A stretch of DNA of 63,886 bases, counting the filler, from Craspedostauros australis (lineage: Eukaryota): assembly GCA_030167865.1 (NCBI GenBank). It is 10 parts of 10 records of this genome, joined end to end, with 100 filler letters (N's around TTAATTAATTAA, not from the genome) between each part and the next. Parts side by side here need not be neighbours in the genome. Positions count along the whole stretch, not along the records: positions 19,912 to 42,404 come from JALAGF010001115.1; 9 more parts are not named here. The stretch is one strand, 5' to 3'. The position numbers and the translations under genes were made by a program. Below, piece after piece: positions 7,779 through 63,886 of the stretch; position 1 is the first letter of the stretch, and each line of letters starts with the position of its first letter. Below the pieces are notes generated by a model. It was not told where the DNA came from, did no database searches, and saw only the letters and a program-made list of their open reading frames with translations.

Positions 7779-10512
7779 TCATGGACGCGACCTCGGCCTG
7801 GACGAAGAGCGCTCGGCCTCTTCTTCCTGATCGATTGGCTGCGATGCCGCTGGTTCTGCCGACTGTGGCCGTGGTCGGCCAGATGGCTGAGGCCATTGTG
7901 GTCGTTCCCTGGAGTAATCCGCTTGGCTTCGCGAATGCGGGAGCGGCGGCATAGGGAAATGAGCCTCTGGCTGGATGTTCATCCTCTGATCTGACATTCC
8001 CGGCGGGGTGAACCCATGCGGCGAAGAAAACAATGACGATGGCATGCCGAAACTGCTGTTCGGTGACTGCAACGGCATGGACAGCAACGCCTGTTGGTGT
8101 GCGCCCGGCGAAGGAGGACGGTCGCGAGAGGGTTGGATCGTCCTATTCTCCGCGTGAGACTGGCCACCTTGCGCGCCTTGATCGCGCGGTGGCTGGAATG
8201 GATTCCCATCGGCACTTCTGGTCCGGAAAGGGGATTGAGTTCTATCACCCGGAGATCGGTGAGGTTCTCGGCCTCGAGAGTGTTCTCGATGACGCTGACC
8301 TTCATGGTGCGATGGAGGGTACGGCTCGGTACGTCTGTCATCCATGGGCGGAGGATGAGAGTACCCCTCGGGTCCATGATGCTCATGTTCACGGCCTGGT
8401 GTCGGCGGTGGTGGGTTATGAGCCTTGTCATGCGGTGGATGTCCACCATGCGGAGGCTGAGCACCATGCGGCGGCTGCGCATGATGGCGTGGATGGTGCG
8501 AATGATGATGTGACGGCGGTGGCGGGTAGTATCCCGAAGTTGGCGGTGGCGGCTGTGTTCCTCTGTATCCCGACGGTCCAGGTGGAGGTGGCGGTTGACC
8601 CCAGGCCGAGTCCTGGTAGTACGGATACCCCGGAGGTGGTGGTGGCGGCATGGATGGCGGTGGCCCGCCATGATCCCGTCCGTATGCTCTTGGCTTCTCG
8701 GATGGTCGGAACGAAGGTGAAGGTCGGCCGCCACCATACCCCGGCCCCCATTCGGGCGCATGCGGTGGTGGCGGTGACCGTTGCGGCATGCCCTCGAAGC
8801 GAGAATGCGGGTTCTGCATGTGCTGCTGCTGCTGCTGCTCTTCGTCGGCCCTTGGTCGTTGGCGACCGTGATGCGGATCGGCACGAGGGTAGCGGTGCGG
8901 AATTTCCCCTCCGGACCTTCCCTTGCCACCCTGACTGTCATCCTTCGGTTTGCCTTGCCCATGTTCGGGTGGTGCCGACGATGGCTTCGACGTGAACTCG
9001 CCTTGCTCCCTGCCGTGCCCGGCTGCCATGCGCTTCTCGTCAGCTGTTGGCTGGACAAGGTAGACATCAATTGGTTCGCCCTTGTTTGATCCACCGGATC
9101 CCCTGCCCGATGGATGTGCTCGTTCGCTGCCCTTGCTGCTGAGCGACATCTCGAACTTCTGCTGGCTCTCGACCCCTTGGACGCTGGGCACCTCCAGCGA
9201 GGTGCCCGATGGCGCGCGGATCCCGATCACGGTGTCCCTCCTGTAATCTGGCATGCCCGTGATGTCGTTGAACTTGATGTACATGTGATCAGCCACGTTT
9301 CCATGCATGCCCGGTGGCAAGTACGCGGCGCTGCTGCCTGTGGCTGGCTGCTTGCCACTGAACACCTCAGCTTGTTGCGAAAGATACTTGAGGTAGTTGT
9401 CAAGCTGCTTCTCTTCCTCCTTGAGCTTGGCCAGATGTGTCTGCATCTTCTTGTACTCTTCCTCGTTGGAGATATTGGTCGTCTTGTTGATACGTGGAGG
9501 GCTCCCAATCCCGTCGCTGCCCTTCTCCCTTCCCTTCACGGGTGTCGCCGGTGGACGAGTGATCGTTTCTGGTGGATCATCGTTCCATGACACATGGTTC
9601 TTCCCCTTCTTTACTAGCAACCCAATTCCCTCCAGCACATTCTGTCGCGGTGGTTGGGTTTGTGAACGGCGGTGAAGCCAATATACAAGTCGGTGTTGAT
9701 TGGCGGAACACAAGATGGATCAGAAAGGCACCGCGAGAGACGAAGCACAAAGCAGCGCGTTCACTTGTGACGAGTCACAACGTCGTTGGTGCCATGGATA
9801 CAACCAGGCCTGCAACAGGCGAAAACGCAAGCACAAGTCCAGCAAGACTGCAGATGCACGCGAATACGCCGACGTGCACAGGACAGTAAGAACTCACCGT
9901 GATATCGTAGATTCTGCGCTTCTGAACTCCCAAGGCCTTGGCGGCCTGGTTCAGATCGAGCGTGTTATCGACGGATGCTCGAAGTATTTGCACAAACTTC
10001 TTCGTCAAGATCCCCAAAGACGAATCGTATCTTGATTGGCTCGTCGTAGACGATGGCGTTCCCGATAGCCCAGCAGCCCCAGACTGTTTCGAACTCGCTG
10101 ACAGCGGAGGCGATCCTCGTGGGGAAGGTGCGAACATCGACCGTGGACCCCCTGTCGTTGGTGCAATAGGAGGCGGTGTTGCAAAGTGCCCATTCATGAA
10201 TAGGTTGCGTGGTGAGACATAGTTGCCGGGAGACATGGTCAAGAGCGATGAGTCCGAACCCGACATTGGCATTGATACGTGGATCGTTTTCAATGGCGTT
10301 TGATAGATCGATTCATTCGTCCCATCAACGTTCGCATGATGATGATCATCATGAAGGTCGATGTCGCCATGGTTGTGGTTGTGGTTGTGGTTGTGTTCAT
10401 GTTGGATATCATCATCGTCATTGGCAATGGCAATGGCAATTGCGTCCATGGTAACATCAGCGTCAGTTTCAGGGTCGTTACCAAAGTTAGAGATGCAACC
10501 GTCGTTTTCCAT
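7779..10512 (-). CDS. E2F: E2F transcription factor (winged-helix DBD, coiled coil, marked box, long P/H/Q-rich C-terminus); intron 9642-9897; start uncertain
   Basis: [14 protein letters not shown]...[21 protein letters not shown]...KNHVSW is joined by a GTGAG...CAG intron. Marked-box [13 protein letters not shown]...PIDVYLV. The start could be 10833, 10512 or an upstream exon at 12596. Confidence 0.92.
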
Positions 10513-11965
10513 GGTAAGGTTGGAGTCGGAATGATGCACGGGATGATGATTCGGAACGTTTGGGTTTTGGTTTTCGTTGGTTTCGTTGGTGGAGTAGGGT
10601 GACACGAGCGGAAGAGCCACATCAACACCATCAGCGCGATCAAGGTTGTGATTGTGGGGGTGGAGTCCATGGGAGATTGTGTCATCACGGCCATTCAATG
10701 GATGGAATGCAGGATTGATGTATCGTAGCGTGGGTGTGATCATGAAGCATGGTTGAGCATTGTATTGGAGTTGTTTTTGACGATACCATTTTGAGACAAA
10801 ATAGTCACGTCCGATGGGTGCCGATGAGTCCATTGATCAAGGATTGATTGAGAGGTAGCAAGATGTTATGGATGGATGGATGGATGAATAGGCGGCGATG
10901 ATGATTTGAGGAAGGAGACGGCGATGTTGTGGCATTCGCGACGGGCGGAATCACCAGATTCGATCAACATTGATGATTCGATTTGTGGATGCAACCAAAG
11001 ATCGATGTAGCATTTTCGTGGGATCGTGGGGTACGCCATATGACGCAATGATGAAGTGCATGATGCATGTTCCAATGATTGGGAACAAGCAGCGGTGTGC
11101 AATTATTGGTGAAAAAAGAGACGGAGTTGTGGGGAGAAGGAAGGAGGACTTTCGGTTAGTTCTGATGCAATCGATACATTAGCTGCGAGACTGCGAGATG
11201 GAGCAACAGCAAGCACAGCCTGACGAGCAAGATAGGCCGCCAGACCTTCAGGTGTCCGTGGATGAGGGTCGTCAAAGAGCGTCAACGGTAGAGGCGGCCG
11301 CATGGTCGAGTCGGCAAAGCTCGAACACGAGCTGGTTGTCTGTGCTCATCGCGCCTCAACGCTGTGGATGTCAGGCACCACCCGTTGCCGATGTCTTCAC
11401 GAGCACGCTGACGATGAATGGATGGGCTGTGGGCATTCGCTGCTTGGCGTTGGAGATTGCTGGCCGAGCGTTGGATGTGAGGAAGTGGGGATAGACCGTT
11501 GGGTTTGCCTCTGGGTGGATACTGGCAGACGCCGACGTGTGTGTTCTTGGCAGTTTGCCGAATTGTGTTGGTGTCGCGGATGAAGTTTTTGGCGCGAAAC
11601 CGCCCCGCTCGATGCTGCTTCCAAGAATTGTATAGGAATTTAACGGTCATCATAACGTCTCCGGACACATATAAGACCCGGAACCGAAACTGATGATGAA
11701 AGATCTTGGGCCCCGAATGCCTTGCTCCGGAATGTAAATCTTCAGCCATGAGGATCTGTATCGGCCTTGCCTCTCGTCACTTAGTGGTGAAGTCGTCGAA
11801 AAATTCGGTACTTAGGGCCCATCTCGTTTCCTTCATAGGGGCTCGGGAGATACCGCCAACTGATGCCATCTTCGGACATGAAGATGTGCACAACAAACAA
11901 CCGTTGGCGCAACGACACAGATTGCAAGTCAAAACACTGGGTGGAGATGCAGTTTGTGGGCTTAC

Positions 11966-22569: not shown

Positions 22570-23969
22570 TGTGATGGTGATCGATCCTTCTACTCCAAAC
22601 CAACGCTGCACTCCAATGCTATTCCGTTGCGTCGTTGCGTCTGTCTCTCCTGTCGATGCTCGTTGGTGACCGTAACGATCTACTTCATGCTCTGGATTCT
22701 GGGAAACCTCCGGACTCAGAACGATCACCAACACCACCAACGCCACCAACGCCAGACAGTATCCGCGGCACATCCTCACCACCGAATCCTTGATGTTGTT
22801 GGATGGGTTGTGTTGGTGTCATTCGTATCTTTTCAATATCTTCTTGCGTTCGTTAGTCTTGATGTTGAAGGACGAACCTGTCCGTCAACGTGACATTCCG
22901 TGTTGAATTGGTGCAGAATGAGTTTTCGAACACTTTACGAACGACAGAGAACTCCTTCGAACGAAAAGAACAATCATGATTGGAAAACTCGTGATTCGAC
23001 GGTCGACTCGATTGGTTGTGAGAAAGGAACTTCAACCTCGACTGTGGGAAGGAATTTCGCTTTCGTTTGGATGGTGCGACATGCGTAGATTTTTGTACTA
23101 AGTATACTGAGATTCACTCCGCTTCAACAGGAACAGAGATTCCTTGAGCCGGCTTGATTCGATGAACCATGACGTACTTTTTCTTGCAGTTGTTTGGTTT
23201 GCTGATTGGTGTCTGAGTTGTGATTGACTCATGATGTCGATGGGGGTTGAGCTTCGGTGACACGATACGATTCAGTGGCTGTGGGGAATCTTCGTCCATC
23301 AGAGCGCGTTTCGTTTGCGGTGGAGGAGTTCGTTTCTCTTCGTGTCTGTGTTGCGCCGTTTTTTTCTCGGAGAGTCCGGGTTTCAGCTGTTCATCGTGGT
23401 GGATTCATCGCGCTAAATGTTCGATTGATCACGTAAGAGGTCCGTCTCGCGATACGCCGTGCTGTATCGTGTTGGATGCAAACCTGGTTGAAGTCAGCAA
23501 AACGTGAAAAGTGAACCATTTGCTGTGCCGCGAACCGTGCAAGTACAGACAGCAGTACCTGTGCGTAGCAAGTATACGTGAAGCAACTGCACTGCCCACC
23601 ACCCACCCACCAACAAACACAAAATCCCAATCAACCACACAAGATCAACGCCCACATCCACGCAAGCCGCAGCATCAGCATCAGCATAAAACAACCAGAG
23701 CGGTTGCGATCAAGATCGGCATCAACATCAACAAGGACACCCAACGCCCATAAAACCAACAGCATCAACAACATCGGCAACACCAAAGAAGAAAGGAAAG
23801 GAGAGACACGTCGCAAGTGAGATCCAAAGCAATCCAATTCAAAGGAAAGCAAAGGAAAGCAAAGGAAACGAACAAACGGAGAGAAAGATCCGAGAACGGC
23901 AGAACACAAACGCACGAACACAGACAGGAACATCAGAACCCAAATCAAAGCCAAATATCATCCCTCACC

Positions 23970-24995
23970 ATGACGACCATCATGCAACCGCAGATCACGC
24001 CGATTGCGTTCACCTCACAGATCCTCAGCCAAGACACAAGCGCAGTGACTGCACCGGTGGGCATGACTTCGATGGAAGCAAGAAACCGCAGCTGTGACAT
24101 CATGTTGACTCAGCACAACGACGCAACAAGCACCGCCACGACAGCACCAGTAGTCGTGCCAGACAGCGCTGCTTCGTGCACAACTTCGCCTACTGCCACC
24201 ACCATCACCACAGCAGCCACAGCAGCCACAACAGTCACAGCAGCCACAACAGTCACAACCACCACCACTACTGCCACCGCAACAACCACCACAGCTGGAC
24301 CAGCACGAAAACGCACGAAAACTTCAGGATCGAGCGCGGCAACCAGCAAGAAAGCCAAGAAGCCGCAGATGAGATACGACCCCGACGTGCCGATGACCAA
24401 GGAGCAGGCCGCCGTCTGGCGTCGCGAACAGCGCAGGAAGCGCAACCGGGAGAGCGCGGCCGCGTCCCGCCAGAAGCAGCGCGATCGCATCACCGAACTC
24501 GAAGTCGAGATCAACGGTTACCAGACCAAGCACTCCTCCATCATGGCCAGGATTCAAGAATTGGAGCGCATCGCCGCCGCCAAGCAGATCACCATCACAT
24601 CCACCACCGAGACTCCGGCTGCCACAGACACCGACACCACTCCTTCCATCACTGTCATGCAGCCAGAATGCGTCACTGATGACGAAGCATCCCGTGCTGG
24701 TCGACACTCTGACGCCAGCAGCATCTCCGCCGATGCCACCGCATGTCCGCACACGACCGCACCAGCTTCGCCTGGACCGGCGTTCGTGCCTTCCTCGCTT
24801 CCCGTTGCAGTCTCACCCATTCCGTCTAACGTTGACTTTCTTGATTTCTCCCACACGCACATGCCACAGACACAGACACAACAAGAGCAGAAGCTCAGCC
24901 TTCTGGATGAGGTCAACGTTGCCATCCCAAGCACACACCAATTGAACATGGATCAGCCACCACTAAGGATTATCTCACGACAAGCTACGTCATGA
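23970..24995 (+). CDS. bZIP transcription factor, unspliced form (341 aa); HAC1/XBP1/bZIP60-like candidate
   Basis: Basic region and zipper WRREQRRKRNRESAAASRQKQRDRITELEVEINGYQTKHSSIMARIQEL. ACCATG start at 23970 after an A/C-rich leader. Confidence 0.92.
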   Translation: MTTIMQPQITPIAFTSQILSQDTSAVTAPVGMTSMEARNRSCDIMLTQHNDATSTATTAPVVVPDSAASCTTSPTATTITTAATAATTVTAATTVTTTTTTATATTTTAGPARKRTKTSGSSAATSKKAKKPQMRYDPDVPMTKEQAAVWRREQRRKRNRESAAASRQKQRDRITELEVEINGYQTKHSSIMARIQELERIAAAKQITITSTTETPAATDTDTTPSITVMQPECVTDDEASRAGRHSDASSISADATACPHTTAPASPGPAFVPSSLPVAVSPIPSNVDFLDFSHTHMPQTQTQQEQKLSLLDEVNVAIPSTHQLNMDQPPLRIISRQATS

Positions 24996-25539
24996 ATCAA
25001 CCAATCAACCATTCAAACAAACACACATACACACACACCAATCCAAACCAGTCAGCACCCACCATCCAACAAAGCCTGACTGCCGTACCCATCGTCGTCG
25101 ATGATTGGGTGAGATCGAGGTCACAAACCGACGAGACTTGGTCGCCGCCGCGCCCAATGGACATTTGATGCCAAGAGAGTACTCAGCAGCAGCTTCAACG
25201 CTCTGCGGTCTCTCGCTATTGGCTTCTCCCCCCGCAACACTGTCGGTGGCATGCATGCACACGCACGCATGCCACCATCGCACAGTTTGCTCTAATTACG
25301 TTCCGGTTCTAGCGATAGAATGACAGCGACGTCCCGTCCATCCGGCATCAAACCCGGCCGCGCCAAGTCCAGTCGCCTTTGTCCGACCAACCATCGAGCA
25401 CAATCATCGACGACAACAAACCGTCCAGATGACGAAACGAAAGTCGCTGCATCATGCGCTCCATCATTCAAAGATGGAGCAATCGATTGCTCGGCAACTC
25501 GTGTCATCGCTTCAACGACATTTAAGATCACCATTCCAG
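24985..25539 (+). other. Putative non-spliceosomal (IRE1-type) intron, 555 nt, highly structured
   Basis: Both junctions lie in 7-nt hairpin loops (AAG|CTAC and CAG|CAGT). No phase-compatible GT/GC donor near the end of the bZIP ORF. Nested internal inverted repeats; removal joins the frames. Confidence 0.65.
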
Positions 25540-25814
25540 CAGTGAAGATCAACGGTGCTGTTTCCACTAGTTCAATCGGTGTCTCGGACCCACAAGCGCA
25601 ACTACAACTGAGCAGTCAGTTGTCCGTCCTCAACCAGCCAGAGCCCTGCCTGTCGTCGTCATCGTCGCCGGCCGTGCAAACGGATATCAAGTTGGAACCT
25701 CTGGACACATCCCTCTTCCAGCCCAAGGTCGAGCCACTCCCGTCCCTCCTCGCGGATGTGGAATCGGAGGATGACTTCGGTGAGTTCCTGTTGGACGCCG
25801 TTCAATGGTTGTAA
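25540..25814 (+). CDS. Second coding exon of the bZIP gene (acidic/hydrophobic activation-like tail); spliced product 429 aa
   Basis: Same frame as the bZIP ORF. Reads AVKINGAVSTSS...IKLEPLD...KVEPLP...VESEDDFGEFLLDAVQWL*. Confidence 0.7.
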
Positions 25815-26506
25815 GCCATCAACGGCTTGCGTGCATTTGCATGCAATCGCAGAGCTGCACGCGCAGAAGAAGTCGCGTACGGTACATACCATAGTACACA
25901 GCATAGCACGGGGTCTACCGCCGTTATGAGTGCGACAGACCACACAGTTGCGCAGCTGTGCACTTTACTCATCCGATCGGCACGACCAATGGCCGGATGC
26001 AGGGCAGAGAACTCCATTTTGGATCACCACGTCCGCCGTGCCACATGTTGCCCACAAGGGAACACGTACACATCAGGAGACGGCAGCAGCTGCAGCAGTA
26101 CTTCTCTACGAGTACATCTGCTCCACTGCTCAGCCGACAACTCCTTCCATTCATTTCAGTAAAAGCTATTGTAGGAACTCAAACAGTATTAGGGAAAACG
26201 TATCATCATTCATCGCTAAAAGACCTGTTGTGGACTTGTGGAAGTCTATGCTTGAGAGTGTAGAGATCATCAAGTTTGAATTTTGGCGCGAAATTTGTGC
26301 GTTCGCGGAACTCGAGTTTCGGCCATGGATCATGAGGATTTTGTCGCCCCACAACATGCCGACAACACAAACACTCTTGTTCGTCCATTGCGTCCCACTG
26401 ATCTGTTGAAAGCAACACCATACTCGCAATCGTATCATACACCAATAATCGTGGGACAATCACCGCATCCTTGATCTCAACCGCTACGCCCGTCGAGCAC
26501 AGGACG

Positions 26507-37334: not shown

Positions 37335-40300
37335 ATGACCCGCGATCAGCAGCCATCGTCGGGGGCGGCCCGTCGCAACAGGAACCGCCAGAATGGCAAC
37401 GGTGGAGGACGCAGCAACGGCCGCAACAATGGCAACAACGAGGATTACTACGATGATGCGCAGAGCGTCCGTTCGCGATCGACCCGCCCCAACGTGATGG
37501 ACGACGATGACTTCTCCGTGGCGCCGTCCATGGAGCAGGATGTCAGGGCGGTCCGCTCCGTCAAATTCGACGATGTGTACAAACGAGGACGGAAGGTGCG
37601 TCGTATACCTGCATATCCGTGTCCATGTGCATGTTGGACATGCGCATGTTGAACATGTACGATTCCGTGGCATGTTGCAATGATCTCGACAGTGCTGGGA
37701 ATGACTGACAATGCATGGCACAGCATCGTCGAATCTACAGCGTGGGTTCTGTGCCGTCCATGAAACGCATCAGCATTCCGATGCAAGCCTTCTTCGGAAT
37801 CTGAATCCGCTGCTTGATTGCCCGCCGTTGAGTTGTCGTGCAACTTGCATCTCATTTGTTGGCGCATCCTTACCGTGACGGTGCTGCATCGACCTCCCAT
37901 GACCACATCACAAGCTTACCACCTGCCACTTGCCTCATTTGTATTCGTATCCGTATCCGTATCCGTATTCGTGTTGGGGATTGAATACGATGACGGCCGA
38001 TCGAACGCCGTCACCATCAACAACCGCAACAAACGACGACAAACAATGACAACAACCCGTCACCGTTCCCAGCTTGGATTGGGTGCATTCGCAGTTGTGT
38101 TCATCGGAACGCATCGGCCCACAAACTCAGAGTACGCGGTGAAGCAGATCGACCGCTCCACGATGTACTGGAATGATCGCGATGCCTTGCAGGATGAGAT
38201 TGCCAATCTCAAGCTCACCAGAGAGGGACCCAACATCGTGCAGCTCTACGAAGTGTACGAAGAGAAGGCGTTTTGCTACCTCGTCATGGAACTCATGGAG
38301 GGCGGCGAGCTCATGGAGTACATCGTCGAGAAGAAGGCTTTCACAGAGCGCGAGGCCCGCGACTGCTCGCGCTGCGTCCTCAGCGCTCTCAAGTACATGC
38401 ACGAAAAGCACGTGGCGCATCGTGACATCAAACCAGAAAATCTTCTGTTGTCGGAGCAGAACAACCTCAGCAGCATCAAGCTGGCTGATTTCAGTTTCGC
38501 AAAGTTCGTCAGCGAGCGCAACGGATGCCGAACACTCTGCGGAACCCCAGGATACCTCGCGCCGGAGATGCTGGAAGATTTCCCAGCCTACGATGTCAAA
38601 TGCGACGTCTGGTCCGTCGGTTGTCTCCTGTACCTCCTGCTCTGTGGATACCTCCCGTTCGACGATGGTGACGACGACGTGATCTTCGAGCAGACGCGGA
38701 ATGGTCAGTTCGACTTCCCTCAAGAATTCTGGCAAGGCGTCAGCAAGGGTGCGAAGGACTTGATCATCAAAATGCTCACCATCAACGCCAAGAAGCGTAT
38801 CTCGGCATCCGTGGCCTTGCGCTCCAACTGGGTGCAGCACGGTGACAAGGTATCGGAAGAACGCCAAGTCAGACAGAAGAAGCTTAAACTCATCATCGAA
38901 GCCAAGACCAAGATGAAGAGGGCCATCACGACGGTGCGTACAATAGCAGCGACACTATTTCCTGCAATCGCACCCTGGTTTGGCTCTGATTTGTACGGCA
39001 TGCCATGTTCTACGCCATTGCGTAGGAATCGATGCTCCACGTATCTGTCCCCAAACACTCATCTCTCTTTTCTCGCTCTGCCTTGTTGTCTCTCTTTTCT
39101 TTTCCATCCTATCCTATTTGTTCTGTTGATGCAAATGTGTACCTACTTGCCCATCGAACCAACGCTCGGACGCTCCTTCATTTGTGGCGATGCGTGCGCA
39201 GGTGATCACGGCCAATCGAGTCACAGCACTGAACCAAGCCTTCAGCGAGTTCGCAAGCAAGAAAAAGGACGAATCCGTCAGCCAGAAGCTGAAGAAGAAG
39301 GAGAAGGAGCGTTTTGTGGAGGACAGTCTAACTGGAGCTCCCTTCGACGAGTTTTACGAAATCGGTGCAGAGCTCGGCGAGGGTGGTTATGCCTTTGTGT
39401 ACCAGTGCACGCACAAGAGAACCCAAAAGTCGTACGCCGTCAAGGAGGTCATCTTGTCACGCCTGGAGAATGGTGGCGAATCCACGCTGAAGGATGAAAT
39501 CGATGCGCTGAAGATGCTCAGAGGTGGTCCCCACATTGTGCGTCTCTACGATGTCTTCATGGAGGCCGACCACTGCTTCATGGTGATGGAGGAAATGAAG
39601 GGAGGCGATCTCCTCTCGCGTATCGTCGACAAGGAAGTGTATACGGAGCGCGAGGCCAGATCCGTGTGCAAGATCCTCTTCCAGGCCGTGGACTACTGTC
39701 ACCAAAAGCACATCGCGCATCGAGACATCAAACCAGAAAATCTCCTCCTTGTGCACGCCGACGATGACACGAGCATCAAGATTGCTGACTTTGGTTTCGC
39801 AAAGAAGGTCACCGGCGTGAATTCTCTGAGCACACTGTGCGGTACGGCCCAGTACGTCGCTCCCGAAGTTCTGGATTGCCAGGTGGATGGGTACGATCAG
39901 ATGTGCGACATGTGGTCTGTCGGTGTCGTGACCTACATTTTGCTTGGAGGTTACGCGCCGTTCGAAGGACCTCCAGACGAGCTGGCCCAGTTCATCATCC
40001 GTGGAGATTACGAGTTCCATGAAAGGTACTGGAGCGAGATCACGCAAGCCGCCAAGGACATGATCACGGCTATGCTGCAAGTGGATCCAGGCCGACGTCT
40101 CAGTGCCGAAGAGGCCCTCCACTGCGAATGGATGGCGCTGGATGCCGGCGCCTTGGCCGCCACCGACCTGAGAGGAACCAGAGACCAGATGCGCGACTCG
40201 ATTGCCGATCCGGAGGCCGCCAAGAAGACGAAGAACGCCATCATCGCCACCAACAAGTTCTTCTCGCTCGGCGCAATGACGAGCGGACTGCTGGTTGGCA

Positions 40301-41558
40301 ACAGACAAAGCAGCACCGGGCACGAAGAGCCAGAATTCGACTTTGAGGATCTGTACGACTGGGGCAAGCAAATTGGCATCGGCACATTCTCCGTTATTCA
40401 CAGATCCGTCCATCGAGAAACCAACGAAGTGTCCGCCGTCAAGCGTGTGGCGCGTGTCGATCTGTGGGAAGAGGACGCCATGGCGCTTCAGAACGAAATC
40501 TCCTCTCTGCGTTTGGTCGCAGATTGCGAATACGTCGTGAGACTGCACGAGGTGTTCGAGGAACCTGACTTCACCTACATGGTGCTCGAAGAACTGATGG
40601 GCGGATACCTGATCGACAAGATCATCGAGAAGGAGCATTACGACGAAGACGAAGGACGAGAAGTGTGCTTCCGTCTCATTTCAGGATTGGCACACTGTCA
40701 TAAGAAACGGATTGCGATCCGTGACTTGAAGCCGGAGAACATCCTGTTGGTAAGTGGATGAATGCTTGTGCAGTGTGTGATGCTGAATGCATGTATGCCT
40801 CTGTTCGGTCTGCGTGGAATGCATGCGCAAACCAAACGGGTTGAGTTGATTGCTCCTTGTCGCGCACTCTGCCGTGCATTGCCATGCATTGGACGACCGG
40901 AGCCATATGAATGGCTGTTGATGAATAGCATTCCATTTCACACTGTGTGGCTAACACTGTGGCCCTTCCCTCCATCCATCTTCCTTTTTTCCTTGCTTTC
41001 TGGATTTGCACGCATGTTTATTTCCAACCATTGCTGGGATGTATCATCGGCACGGATTCTCCTGCGTCGATGCCCACAAAACGTATCGAAATGTATCGAA
41101 ACGAAACGAAACGGAATGAGCAGATGAAGAACAGCTACATAGACGTCAAGATCAGCGATTTCGGGTACGCCAAGAAGGTGCACAATCCAAATACGCTGAC
41201 CACGGTCTGTGGTACCGAAGGTTTCGTCGCGCCAGAAATCATCGAGCACAGTCCGGAGTACGACATCGAGTGCGATATGTGGAGTTTGGGAGTTGTCATT
41301 TTCATCATCCTCGGTGGCTACAGACCGTTCCGTGGAGAAGGCGAGGCCTGTTTGGAGAATATCCGATACGGAAAGTATAAGTTCCACAAGAGGTACTGGT
41401 CGGATGTTTCGGAGGAGGCCAAGGACTTGATCCGCAATATGCTTGTCGTCGACCCTGCCAGCCGAATCAAGGCAGAGGAGGCGTTGCAGGCACCATGGAT
41501 CACGATGTCAGAGTCCGAAGAGGAGTACCAAGCACCACCGAGAAATCGAAGGCGTTAA
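37335..41558 (+). CDS. CaMK-group Ser/Thr kinase with three tandem kinase domains; exons 37335-37595, 38073-38933, 39202-40749, 41124-41558 (1034 aa)
   Basis: Three motif sets: LGLGAFA/AVK/HRDIKPEN/DFS/APE, LGEGGYA/AVK/HRDIKPEN/DFG/APE and IGIGTFS/AVK/IRDLKPEN/DFG/APE. Three phase-0 GT-AG introns join them. Confidence 0.9.
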
Positions 41559-61854: not shown

Positions 61855-62636
61855 TTACCGCATACATAGTCACACATACTACCATGCTCTTGCTTGTACG
61901 CCGCCAGCATTTTCCTCTTTTTTGTTGTCAAAGCCAGGCACTCAATGACGTACGCTCTAGCTTCGCTTGTCTCTTCTACACAATCTGAGTCACTAATCGA
62001 GTCAAGAATACTGCTGTGTTGCCAAATGTCTCATTGTTGTTGTTGTTGTTGTCATTAGAGCCTAAACGGAATGGCTGTGGTCTTTGTTGGCTGTGTGAGC
62101 TGTATGGCAGAGGCTTGATTGCAAGCTGTCTGAACAAGTATCTTCTGTTCCACAAGTACTATGCTCCTCAGATCCAACTGACTGCAACTCGTCTCGATTC
62201 CCTCATTGGCTATGACAACCACATTGTTGTCATGGTCATAGCGTGGATATCCGACCCACTTCAAATCAAGTAAGGTAATTCGATGGTGACTTCCAACCAC
62301 AGCCGCTGTTGTATTCTCAACTCCAATAAAGTGATGAGCTGCTATGTTCTATGCTACAATGCAACAACACCAAGAGAGATGAACAAGAGCAAGGAGCAAT
62401 GTCTGCCCTCAACACTGAACCATGTGGATCAGTGCAGAGCCGCATTAACTGTGTGGCATCATTTCTTCATCCTACCAAGACTACTAACTAATTCATAACA
62501 TACAAACTGAGTTTAGCACAAATCACTACTCTACTCNNNNNNNNNNNNNNNNNNNNNNNNNNNNNNNNNNNNNNNNNNNNTTAATTAATTAANNNNNNNN
62601 NNNNNNNNNNNNNNNNNNNNNNNNNNNNNNNNNNNN

Positions 62637-63886
62637 TGCTGTCTCCGTCCACGTTGCACCCCTGAGGTACTTGCATGAAGATGTCGCATTCCACATCCGC
62701 TTGCGGGAACGCCAGAACGAAGTCGATTTGGCGAGTGTGCCANNNNNNNNNNNNNNNNNNNNNNNNNNNNNNNNNNNNNNNNNNNNNNNNNNNNNNNNNN
62801 NNNNNNNNNNNNNNNNNNNNGACACCATATTGTTGCTCTCCTCCATGCACGCATAGCCGTGCTTTCCACTTGTAGATTTCGCCGGTTGCGAGTCTGCGTT
62901 TGCGCTTGAATGACCAGACGGCTTTCAGGATCTTGTGCCCTTTTGGCACTTGATTGCGTTGCACGACCTCCCAATGCTGTCTGGACTGGTGGTCTTCGAT
63001 CTCCTTGTGCATTGCCTCGATGAATTTGTCACGGTCGTTCTGCTTCTGCATTTGCCCCCAGTACATGGTGTCGTCGTCTGCGAGTGTTGCCGCGAATGAC
63101 ATGGGGTGCAGGTCGCCGGAGTTCATGTTGAGGATGTCGGATGCATGGAAGGATCGAGCTGTGTGCGTGTGGTATGATTGGAGTTGGAGTGTAAGCTGGT
63201 TGGTCTCTGCACGTTCTGTTGCGGATGGAGCGGATCGTGATGCGTTCTGTGTGGCGATGGCGTGTGTAGGTGTAGCTCCCTCTGAAGGTGAGCTTGCTGG
63301 TTGTCTCGGAAGACTTTGCCTTGGAAGGCTGTGCCCCGGAAGGCTGGACCTCGGAAGGCTGTGCCTCGGAAGGCTGTGCCCCGGAAGGCTGGACCTCGGA
63401 AGGCTTTGCAACTTGTGCTGCATGTCAAGCTGGAATGGCTTGGCGTCAGGTGCAGCGTGTGTGATCCCCGGAGGACGTGTGCTTGCGGAAAGCTGGTGCT
63501 GAACAGCATGTGTGATGCGTTCGGAGCGCATCTGCTGTGAGGGCTTGGCTGGTTCGTCGATGTGCGTGAGACGCTGCCACTGTGATGCGCCAGGACGCAT
63601 TAGCGGGTTGGTCTTGACTGTTTGGAACCTGTCGTCGAAGTTCAGATGGAACTGTGGCGATATGTACCCTGTGTCGATCTTGAGAACGATAGGTACGCTG
63701 CTCGCATGTTCAGCTGACATGCCAAGGAAGATGGCAATGTTGGCGCGGCTGCTCCACTTGGGAACCTGAGATCCCTGTTGGAGTGCGGCCTTGAGGATGT
63801 AGACAGGGCATCCAAATGTGTGAAAGTGTTGCATTGAGGGTCGGACCTCGATCTGCGCGAATCGCTGGAGTGGCGATATACCTCCC
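62637..63886 (-). mobile_element. Ty1/copia (CoDi-type) pol fragment: integrase C-terminus and reverse transcriptase N-terminus
   Basis: HTFGCPVYIL...ISPQFHLNFDDRF, then AVWSFKRKR...YKWKARLCVHGG and TRQIDFVLAFPQA...IFMQVPQG. Confidence 0.95.

Follow-up and report, generated by a model that had tools for sequence, protein, structure and literature searches.

The unfolded protein response (UPR) depends in several lineages on a bZIP mRNA that is activated by IRE1-type cytoplasmic splicing: HAC1 in Saccharomyces cerevisiae (cut by Ire1 and joined by the tRNA ligase Trl1), XBP1 in metazoans (IRE1alpha and RtcB) and bZIP60 in plants, where the mRNA is spliced by IRE1 under endoplasmic reticulum (ER) stress (PMC3216516). 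The intron of HAC1 is much longer than the 26 nt of XBP1 (PMC3216516). The S. cerevisiae enzyme cuts CNG|CNGN (or CNG|ANGN) in a 7-membered loop, mammalian IRE1alpha has the motif CUG|CAG, and UG|C suffices for Schizosaccharomyces pombe Ire1, in loops of 3-9 nt (PMC6037481). In XBP1 an RNA zipper holds the exons for ligation (PMC6037481). The mRNA of CrbZIP1 in Chlamydomonas is likewise an IRE1 splicing target under ER stress in a photosynthetic eukaryote and is treated in a review (PMC13545648). Heterokont bZIPs have been reported to cluster with HAC1, ATF6-OASIS and plant proto-B (PMC4736632). Here we describe a gene of the diatom Craspedostauros australis, found in a 63,886-nt stretch of its DNA (the window), that is very probably the IRE1-spliced UPR bZIP mRNA of diatoms, notable for its relaxed 5' loop, its long intron and an exon clamp of unusual length. 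In the literature on diatoms or stramenopiles together with IRE1, UPR, bZIP or splicing, a coverage that mostly excludes subscription journals, we found neither an account of such splicing nor a description of a diatom UPR transcription factor.

A bZIP frame and a downstream tail frame

The bZIP open reading frame (ORF) runs from the ATG at 23970 to the TGA at 24993-95 and encodes 341 aa ending in ...ISRQATS. Both Pfam models bZIP_1 and bZIP_2 exceed their cut-offs in this protein; a profile search against PDB chains returned only Jun, AP-1, BACH1 and GCN4 (E 0.07-0.6), a generic bZIP signal, and NCBIfam gave nothing relevant. Downstream, a stretch in the same frame is open over 25296-25814, with the C-terminus DDFGEFLLDAVQWL* (stop TAA at 25812-14), and a Pfam search matched no family to it. 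A preliminary description of the locus had proposed that the two frames are joined by removal of a 555-nt intron, and its coordinates for the ORF, the downstream frame and both junction elements all check out. The scripted join of 23970-24984 with 25540-25814 is in frame, as had been claimed; the resulting protein of 429 aa is free of internal stops and reads IISRQAVKINGA at the junction. Splicing in the window would thereby keep the frame, and the protein would grow from 341 to 429 aa, its C-terminus being exchanged for a new tail that is conserved.

G|C stands at each junction, with predicted cuts between 24984/24985 and 25539/25540, and the predicted spliced mRNA reads ...CGACAAG|CAGTGAAG across the junction. 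Because some bases are shared by both junctions, four placements of the intron are equivalent and yield an identical mRNA. The corresponding intron ends are AG..CC, GC..CA, CT..AG and TA..GC, none of the four being canonical. A search of Rfam over 23600-26300 gave seven matches, unrelated and all far below gathering scores.

Inside the intron, the same-frame open stretch that begins at 25296 (ATG at 25320) is unconserved in relatives. The N-terminal half of the protein carries a Thr/Ala-rich low-complexity run (24120-24300 in the window, residues ~50-110), and the N-terminal motif of the family, ARKRRREILASQR, is degenerate in the window protein (EARNRSCDIMLTQH).

Relatives share one junction, with and without the intron

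We searched for relatives with the 341-aa protein (8000 candidates scored, 396 at E <= 0.001, 120 listed). Every named homologue among the 120 listed comes from a diatom (Seminavis robusta, Nitzschia inconspicua, Chaetoceros tenuissimus or one MMETSP entry). The listed proteins occur in two forms. The short form (107/120) ends no more than 30 residues after ...(K)MISR[PQHL]A, and in 89 of these cases no more than 3 residues after it. The long form (10/120) reads straight through as ISRxA-VKI..., and nine of the ten end in ...EFGEFLLDAVQWL (..FLLDAVQWL); the remaining 3 of the 120 fit neither form. A second search, with the tail only, scored 38 candidates and found 17 proteins, 13 of them new. 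The SRxAVK junction is present in 12 of these 13, MMETSP culture transcriptomes included, and the tail is conserved to ..FLLDAVQWL across relatives. One protein (P0133), to judge by its source name a gene model from Pseudo-nitzschia multiseries, has a GT...AG join instead; it reads ISRHATSSIPAVKI and is six residues longer at the junction than transcripts of the same clade (ISRHAVKI). Gene calls otherwise mostly end at ISRxA, as the 107 short forms do.

A scan of metagenome contigs yielded 80 related loci, which a script classified as intron-less (21), intron-containing (55) or unclassed (4). The unclassed loci are out of all counts: the 5' motif is absent from the ORF in L039 and L073, and L077 and L079 are without RRKRNRES. 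The downstream [IL]PAVKI frame was located in 49 of the 55 intron-containing loci; the other six (L002, L010, L013, L021, L033 and L053), where the downstream AVKI was not found, in most cases because the contig stops short, are out of the intron counts. The resulting set holds 42 distinct introns, that of the window included.

All 21 intron-less contigs share a single junction, ...CGAC[C/A][A/T]G|CAGTGAAGATC (ISRxA|VKI). Moreover, three pairs of spliced and unspliced partners (L048/L057, L049/L051 and L069/L076) are 99.9-100% identical outside deletions of 344, 457 and 341 nt, respectively, and these deletions fall exactly at the G|C sites. The junction predicted earlier for the window, RQA|VKI with G|C at both cuts, thus recurs in 21/80 loci, 10/120 listed homologues and 12/13 further tail-bearing proteins. 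Judging from these sequences, precise excision at G|C occurs in the relatives, and it would be expected in C. australis.

The 42 distinct introns are 217-555 nt long, that of the window being the longest. Their lengths leave remainders of 0, 1 and 2 on division by 3 in 13, 15 and 14 loci, so that the frame changes on splicing in roughly two of every three lineages and is kept in the window. None of the 42 has GT-AG, GC-AG or AT-AC ends at any equivalent placement, and a 3' AG is missing in 10, which agrees with the earlier claim that the intron is non-spliceosomal. The tail frame reaches DA..WL* in 47 of 50 unspliced loci, and the other three leave the contig. Conservation starts exactly at the 3' site, while the region upstream of AVKI varies in sequence, length and frame. 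Contig ends with poly(A) (2/49 unspliced, 0/21 spliced) are uninformative.

Some loci depart from the common pattern. A divergent lineage (L013:833-900 and L010:1521-1531, ...KEIPRPAV*) has the 5' site AGACCAG|CAGTATAGTC, apparently with three extra loop bases, and its ..DA..WL tail frame was not found within a 1776-nt contig. In L021, L024, L025 and L026 the unspliced ORF extends ~31 residues beyond the 5' site (...SLPAEYRKQNCIIP...DIQ*), the 5' stem is TAC/GTA in place of GAC/GTC, and the intronic AAGATC is changed to GATGATC. Among the contigs of a single run (X1; RNA only a guess, share 0.12), one of 661 nt is identical to the window from 25538 into the 3' untranslated region (UTR). No X1 contig matched the window across the junction, and exon 1 and the intron are uncovered. 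At position 25538 the sequences of the spliced and unspliced forms first coincide, and a contig start there might stem from branching of the assembly graph; these contigs were given no weight.

Cleavage-site sequences

The 3' site hardly varies. All 44 distinct sequences read TTC-CNG|CAGT-GAAGATC (CNG|CAGTGAAGATC), and its sole variable position, -2, is A in 32, C in 7, T in 2 and G in 1 of the 42 distinct introns. Even the three synonymous codon positions of GTG AAG ATC never vary among distinct sequences. The 3' site CNG|CAGT fits the IRE1 motif CNG|CNGN in 44/44. At the 5' site the fixed positions are G-1 and C+1 only; of the 42 loci, 24 have C and the other 18 have A at -3, and at +3 the counts are 19 T, 15 A, 5 G and 3 C. 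The CNG|CNGN motif on which the preliminary description drew stands, as sequence, at the 3' site and is only partly kept at the 5' site. The caveat attached to it, that the 5' loop deviates at -3 and +3, is real and general: the deviation is a trait of the family and not a defect of the window copy. As UG|C is all that S. pombe Ire1 requires, a relaxed 5' loop lies within known Ire1 behaviour.

Two conserved intronic motifs accompany the sites. One, (A)GAATCATTCAC, follows the 5' hairpin (~24993-25004) and can pair with ATGAT of exon 1 as a lower stem; the window retains only part of it. The other, CC(T/A)(C/T)TAAGATCA, precedes the 3' site (~25515-25529) and can pair with GATC of exon 2, again as a lower stem.

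RNA structure at the splice sites and between the exons

Both cuts had been placed in 7-nt hairpin loops, and folding upholds this for the 5' site. In a 676-nt context the core pairs 24979-81/24989-91 of the 5' hairpin have a probability of 0.92. Over the 42 loci (intron and 60-nt flanks folded) the mean probability of the three core pairs is 0.77, and it is at least 0.5 in 35/42. RNAalifold, run on 41 sequences, predicts exactly this 7-nt-loop hairpin. In the stem, pair 27-39 occurs as G-C (33 sequences) or, by compensatory change, as U-A (4 sequences), and pair 26-40 is U-A, A-U or C-G in 14. The unspliced stop TGA sits within the stem.

At the 3' site the 7-nt-loop element of the window is TTC[CAG|CAGT]GAA at 25534-25546, and a hairpin with such a loop (TTC/GAA plus GATC/GATC) can be drawn with 97.7% of cells paired. 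In the minimum free energy (MFE) fold of the window, G|C instead sits in a loop of 5 nt (CCAG|C), with CAUU/AGUG and GAUC(25526-29)/GAUC(25547-50) as the closing helices. This is a different register of the same 3' stem, and the 7-nt-loop register has p 0.01 in the window; the second 7-nt loop of the preliminary description thus has no support from folding energy. The comparison of orthologues suggested there gave a conserved SRxA|VK junction and some covariation in the 5' stem; the 3' hairpin is invariant, which leaves no room for covariation.

Taken alone, short pieces do not stand out from chance. The hairpin is the MFE fold of a 41-nt 5' piece, yet its z is -0.79 and 37 of 200 shuffles fold as well; in the 41-nt 3' piece the 7-nt-loop hairpin is not the MFE fold, and local folds of 41- and 91-nt pieces are no better than shuffles. 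Since the small hairpins alone are within chance, the case rests on the relatives and on the wider fold. The latter is pronounced: 24925-25600 (676 nt) folds at -224.1 kcal/mol versus -166.8 +/- 6.9 for 20 shuffles (z -8.3). Long helices also form in the MFE fold within the intron itself.

The wider fold contains a long-range duplex between exon 1 and exon 2, absent from the preliminary description, which co-evolves and clamps the intron. We compared the duplex energy of exon-1 segments (-50..-13) with the cognate exon-2 segment (+12..+50) and with non-cognate ones taken from loci that are dissimilar. For the window, cognate pairing yields -29.2 kcal/mol versus -10.3 for non-cognate pairing, and 0 of 41 non-cognate partners reach -29.2. 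Over the 42 loci the cognate mean is -23.3 kcal/mol versus ~-12 for non-cognate partners and -11.6 for shuffles, and in 32/42 no non-cognate partner attains the cognate value. Against segments of the same locus shifted by 60 nt (-11.6 and -11.1), cognate pairing is best in 41/41 loci. A helix at fixed columns (-30..-25 with +15..+20) is not uniformly kept across loci; duplex energy was used as the test because the offset of the clamp differs among clades. As helix offsets and sequences both differ by clade, complementarity has been maintained while the sequences changed. The coordinates of all elements are collected in Table 1.

Table 1. Elements of the candidate IRE1-spliced bZIP gene in the window
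Feature	Position	Strand	Basis
Exon 1, bZIP coding through the Ala-codon G that precedes the 5' cut	23970..24984	+	ORF; junction position from 21 intron-less relatives and 3 spliced/unspliced pairs
bZIP domain, residues 150-200	24417..24569	+	Pfam bZIP_1 E 7.1e-07, 29.7 bits (cut-off 27.6); bZIP_2 E 2.2e-05
Exon-1 strand of the long-range duplex	24927..24961	+	27 bp with 25554-25587 in the MFE fold of 24925-25600
5' splice-site hairpin, stem TCAcGAC/GTCaTGA, 7-nt loop AAG|CTAC at 24982-24988	24975..24995	+	Folding, RNAalifold, some covariation
Predicted non-spliceosomal intron, 555 nt, in-frame stops, highly structured	24985..25539	+	Non-canonical ends at all 4 equivalent placements
3' splice-site element GATC...TTC[CAG|CAGT]GAA-GATC	25526..25550	+	Invariant motif; MFE fold
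Predicted exon 2, coding part: CA of the Ala codon, VKI...DDFGEFLLDAVQWL, TAA 25812-14	25540..25814	+	Tail ORF; scripted join
Exon-2 strand of the long-range duplex	25554..25587	+	Duplex energies, MFE fold

Evidence against IRE1 splicing and alternative explanations

Several points weigh against IRE1 splicing of this gene. The three-nucleotide rule of HAC1, XBP1 and bZIP60 is broken by the 5' loop, which shows the full CNG|CNGN in 4/42 loci and reads AAG|CTAC in the window. The 5' stem covaries only modestly: pair 26-40 does not form in 27/41 sequences, and a slide of the stem by +1 equals it on some measures. At the 3' site the upper stem of the 7-nt-loop hairpin is 3 bp and A/U-rich, with a mean probability of 0.035 over the loci; RNAalifold predicts no pairs there, and a sequence that never varies shows no covariation. 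The 42 sequences are non-independent and represent a limited number of clades. The join in the window is predicted from relatives that are at most 76% identical to it over the best local (bZIP) alignment and less so elsewhere. Finally, it is the likeness to HAC1, XBP1 and bZIP60 that suggests cleavage by IRE1, a trigger in ER stress, joining by the ligase and activation by the tail.

Given the relaxed 5' loop, one could ask whether the tRNA-splicing endonuclease, acting on a bulge-helix-bulge (BHB), or another structure-specific nuclease makes the cuts. The 5' loop is without the IRE1 consensus in 38/42 loci, and archaeal-type BHB introns, too, typically have a long helix next to the splice sites. 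IRE1 is present in diatoms; its presence in this organism is an assumption. However, the 4-bp central helix of a BHB (intron start with exon-2 start) can form in 5/42 loci with one geometry, and with the other eight geometries in no locus at all. Both proposed cuts separate a G from a C within hairpin loops, the 3' loop matches CNG|CNGN perfectly, and relaxed loops are known for S. pombe Ire1 (UG|C, 3-9 nt; PMC6037481). We regard a nuclease other than IRE1 as very unlikely.

An ordinary spliceosomal intron with unusual sites, or a real nested intron from GT(24989) to AG(25526), is highly improbable. Its appeal comes from conserved sequence: GT at +5/+6 is invariant, an intronic AAG is conserved 10-20 nt upstream of the 3' site, and a conserved CT(A/C)TAAG, followed by a pyrimidine-rich run and CAG, resembles a branch site. 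The Pseudo-nitzschia gene model P0133 uses the same GT...AG and reads HATSSIPAVKI. Yet G|C, and not GT...AG, is the junction in 21/21 intron-less contigs and in 22/23 tail-bearing proteins, the sole exception being P0133, a genome-based gene model and not a transcript. The GT...AG join is in frame and stop-free in 14/42 loci, all from two related clades, out of frame or stop-containing in 26/42, and in 2/42 the AAGA motif is absent. In the window it gives ...SRQATSPFQQ*, a frameshift and a stop; the preliminary description had already dismissed the nearby GT as a donor, and the dismissal holds for this acceptor, which lay beyond its test. Canonical ends are lacking in all 42 introns and the 3' AG in 10, as noted above, and the invariant GT and AAGATC are explained as strands of the two hairpin stems. 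We reject the spliceosomal reading because every transcript-derived sequence uses G|C. In the 14 loci where the nested join is in frame (+18 nt; L034, L041, L050, L051, L057, L063, L067, L068, L070, L072, L076, L080, L011 and L017, of the ISRHA and ISRQASS clades), no spliceosomal isoform beside the G|C form was found among the transcripts.

The intron-less contigs could also be artefacts of assembly or of reverse-transcriptase template switching at a short direct repeat (CCAGCA or AG/C). Indeed, 3-6 identical bases are common to both junctions (shifts -4 to +3), a typical template-switch signature. Against this, the bZIP frame meets the conserved tail only through the exact deletion, despite intron lengths that are spread over all three remainders, and the tail ORF, conserved to its last residue in 47/50 loci, is without any other in-frame route to the bZIP ORF. 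Across several sources, 21 contigs and 22 proteins show the identical junction, and a conserved hairpin and a co-evolving exon duplex would have no role under an artefact. We consider this origin extremely improbable. A last alternative divides the locus into a gene for a short bZIP protein and a second gene, transcribed on its own, for the downstream ORF. The open stretch 25296-25814 with its ATG at 25320 and the X1 contig that covers only 25538 onward (given no weight) would fit, but the probability is extremely low: conservation sets in exactly at the 3' site, and the sequence upstream of AVKI is unconserved, differs in length and frame among relatives and is missing from all 21 intron-less contigs.

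Comparison with known IRE1 substrates and a proposed mechanism

We hold it highly likely that the gene is the diatom counterpart of HAC1, XBP1 and bZIP60, a bZIP mRNA activated by IRE1-type cytoplasmic splicing. At the level of protein sequence, a relationship between these factors and the diatom protein was found only as generic bZIP similarity. A parallel exists in Cryptococcus neoformans, where Hxl1 is a lineage-specific bZIP target of Ire1 without clear HAC1 or XBP1 orthology (PMC3154848); unlike the diatom gene, Hxl1 is fungal.

With HAC1 the diatom gene shares a long intron, an early stop after the 5' site and the exchange of the C-terminal tail, as well as predicted cuts after G in hairpin loops, which are 7-membered in HAC1 (PMC6037481) and at the diatom 5' site. 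It differs from HAC1 in that the 5' loop is fixed at G-1 and C+1 only and that a long exon-exon duplex is present. The comparison can be extended to translational control. Translation of HAC1 is blocked by pairing of the intron with the 5' UTR; the same pairing in the window gave -105.5 versus -104.2 +/- 6.0 for shuffled UTRs, no support for such a block.

With XBP1 it shares twin G|C sites in hairpin loops and a spliced form that gains an activation tail (an activation role that is presumed for the diatom tail), and the frame change on splicing of XBP1 is seen in ~2/3 of the diatom loci. The XBP1 zipper resembles the exon 1-exon 2 duplex of the diatom gene, which is 27 bp in the window. Unlike XBP1, where the intron has 26 nt, diatoms have introns of 217-555 nt; and whereas XBP1u extends for many residues in the other frame, the unspliced diatom ORF mostly stops within 0-3 codons.

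As in bZIP60, intron boundaries are strongly conserved among homologues and intron-less cDNAs occur in other species; the case for bZIP60 was backed by evidence of the same kind as the diatom case (PMC3216516). In contrast, the 23-nt intron of bZIP60 removes a transmembrane segment by frameshift, and its three essential nucleotides are strict in both plant loops (PMC3216516), in diatoms in the 3' loop only.

These likenesses suggest the following course of events. The unspliced mRNA would be translated into the 341-aa bZIP protein, which stops 3 codons past the 5' site. About 35 nt of exon 1 would pair with about 35 nt of exon 2, looping out the 555-nt intron, and this duplex would bring the two junctions, each of them within a small hairpin, next to one another. 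Cuts by an endonuclease, presumably IRE1, would follow after G24984 (AAG|CTAC) and after G25539 (CAG|CAGT), and the two halves, held together by the exon-exon duplex, would then be joined by an RNA ligase. The spliced mRNA would encode 429 aa, the TS and stop being replaced by a 90-residue tail whose acidic-hydrophobic end (EDDFGEFLLDAVQWL) may be an activation domain. More broadly, and with somewhat less than even confidence, we suggest that the UPR of diatoms, perhaps of ochrophytes, runs through an undescribed IRE1 substrate that combines a HAC1-like long intron and early stop, an XBP1-like but longer (~27 bp) co-evolving clamp, and a stringent 3' CNG|CAGT with a relaxed 5' NG|C.

Diatoms are major primary producers and increasingly serve as cell factories for secreted proteins. 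The gene is a concrete candidate for the diatom UPR factor and likely the missing switch of the diatom unfolded-protein response, and the 555-nt size shift could be a ready splicing reporter for diatom ER stress. It would extend IRE1-type mRNA splicing to a lineage distant from animals, fungi and green plants. The ~40 natural variants of both cleavage sites and of the exon clamp are a resource on the requirements of IRE1 and the ligase. Annotation pipelines mis-model the gene, either ending the protein at ISRxA or forcing a wrong GT-AG join, as in P0133.

Neighbouring genes

A Pfam search of 21 large ORFs in the window found ordinary nuclear genes (PRMT, E2F/DP, cation efflux, SET and two kinases), and IRE1 is not among the matches of these ORFs. 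Neighbours at 7779-10833 (-), 37899-40761 (+) and 62581-63834 (-) comprise an E2F/DP-type gene, kinase ORFs and an RVT_2 fragment. The E2F/DP-type gene is split across two ORFs and therefore probably contains an intron. The RVT_2 reverse-transcriptase fragment is weak and below the Pfam cut-off, and the two ORFs with protein kinase domains lie in overlapping frames.

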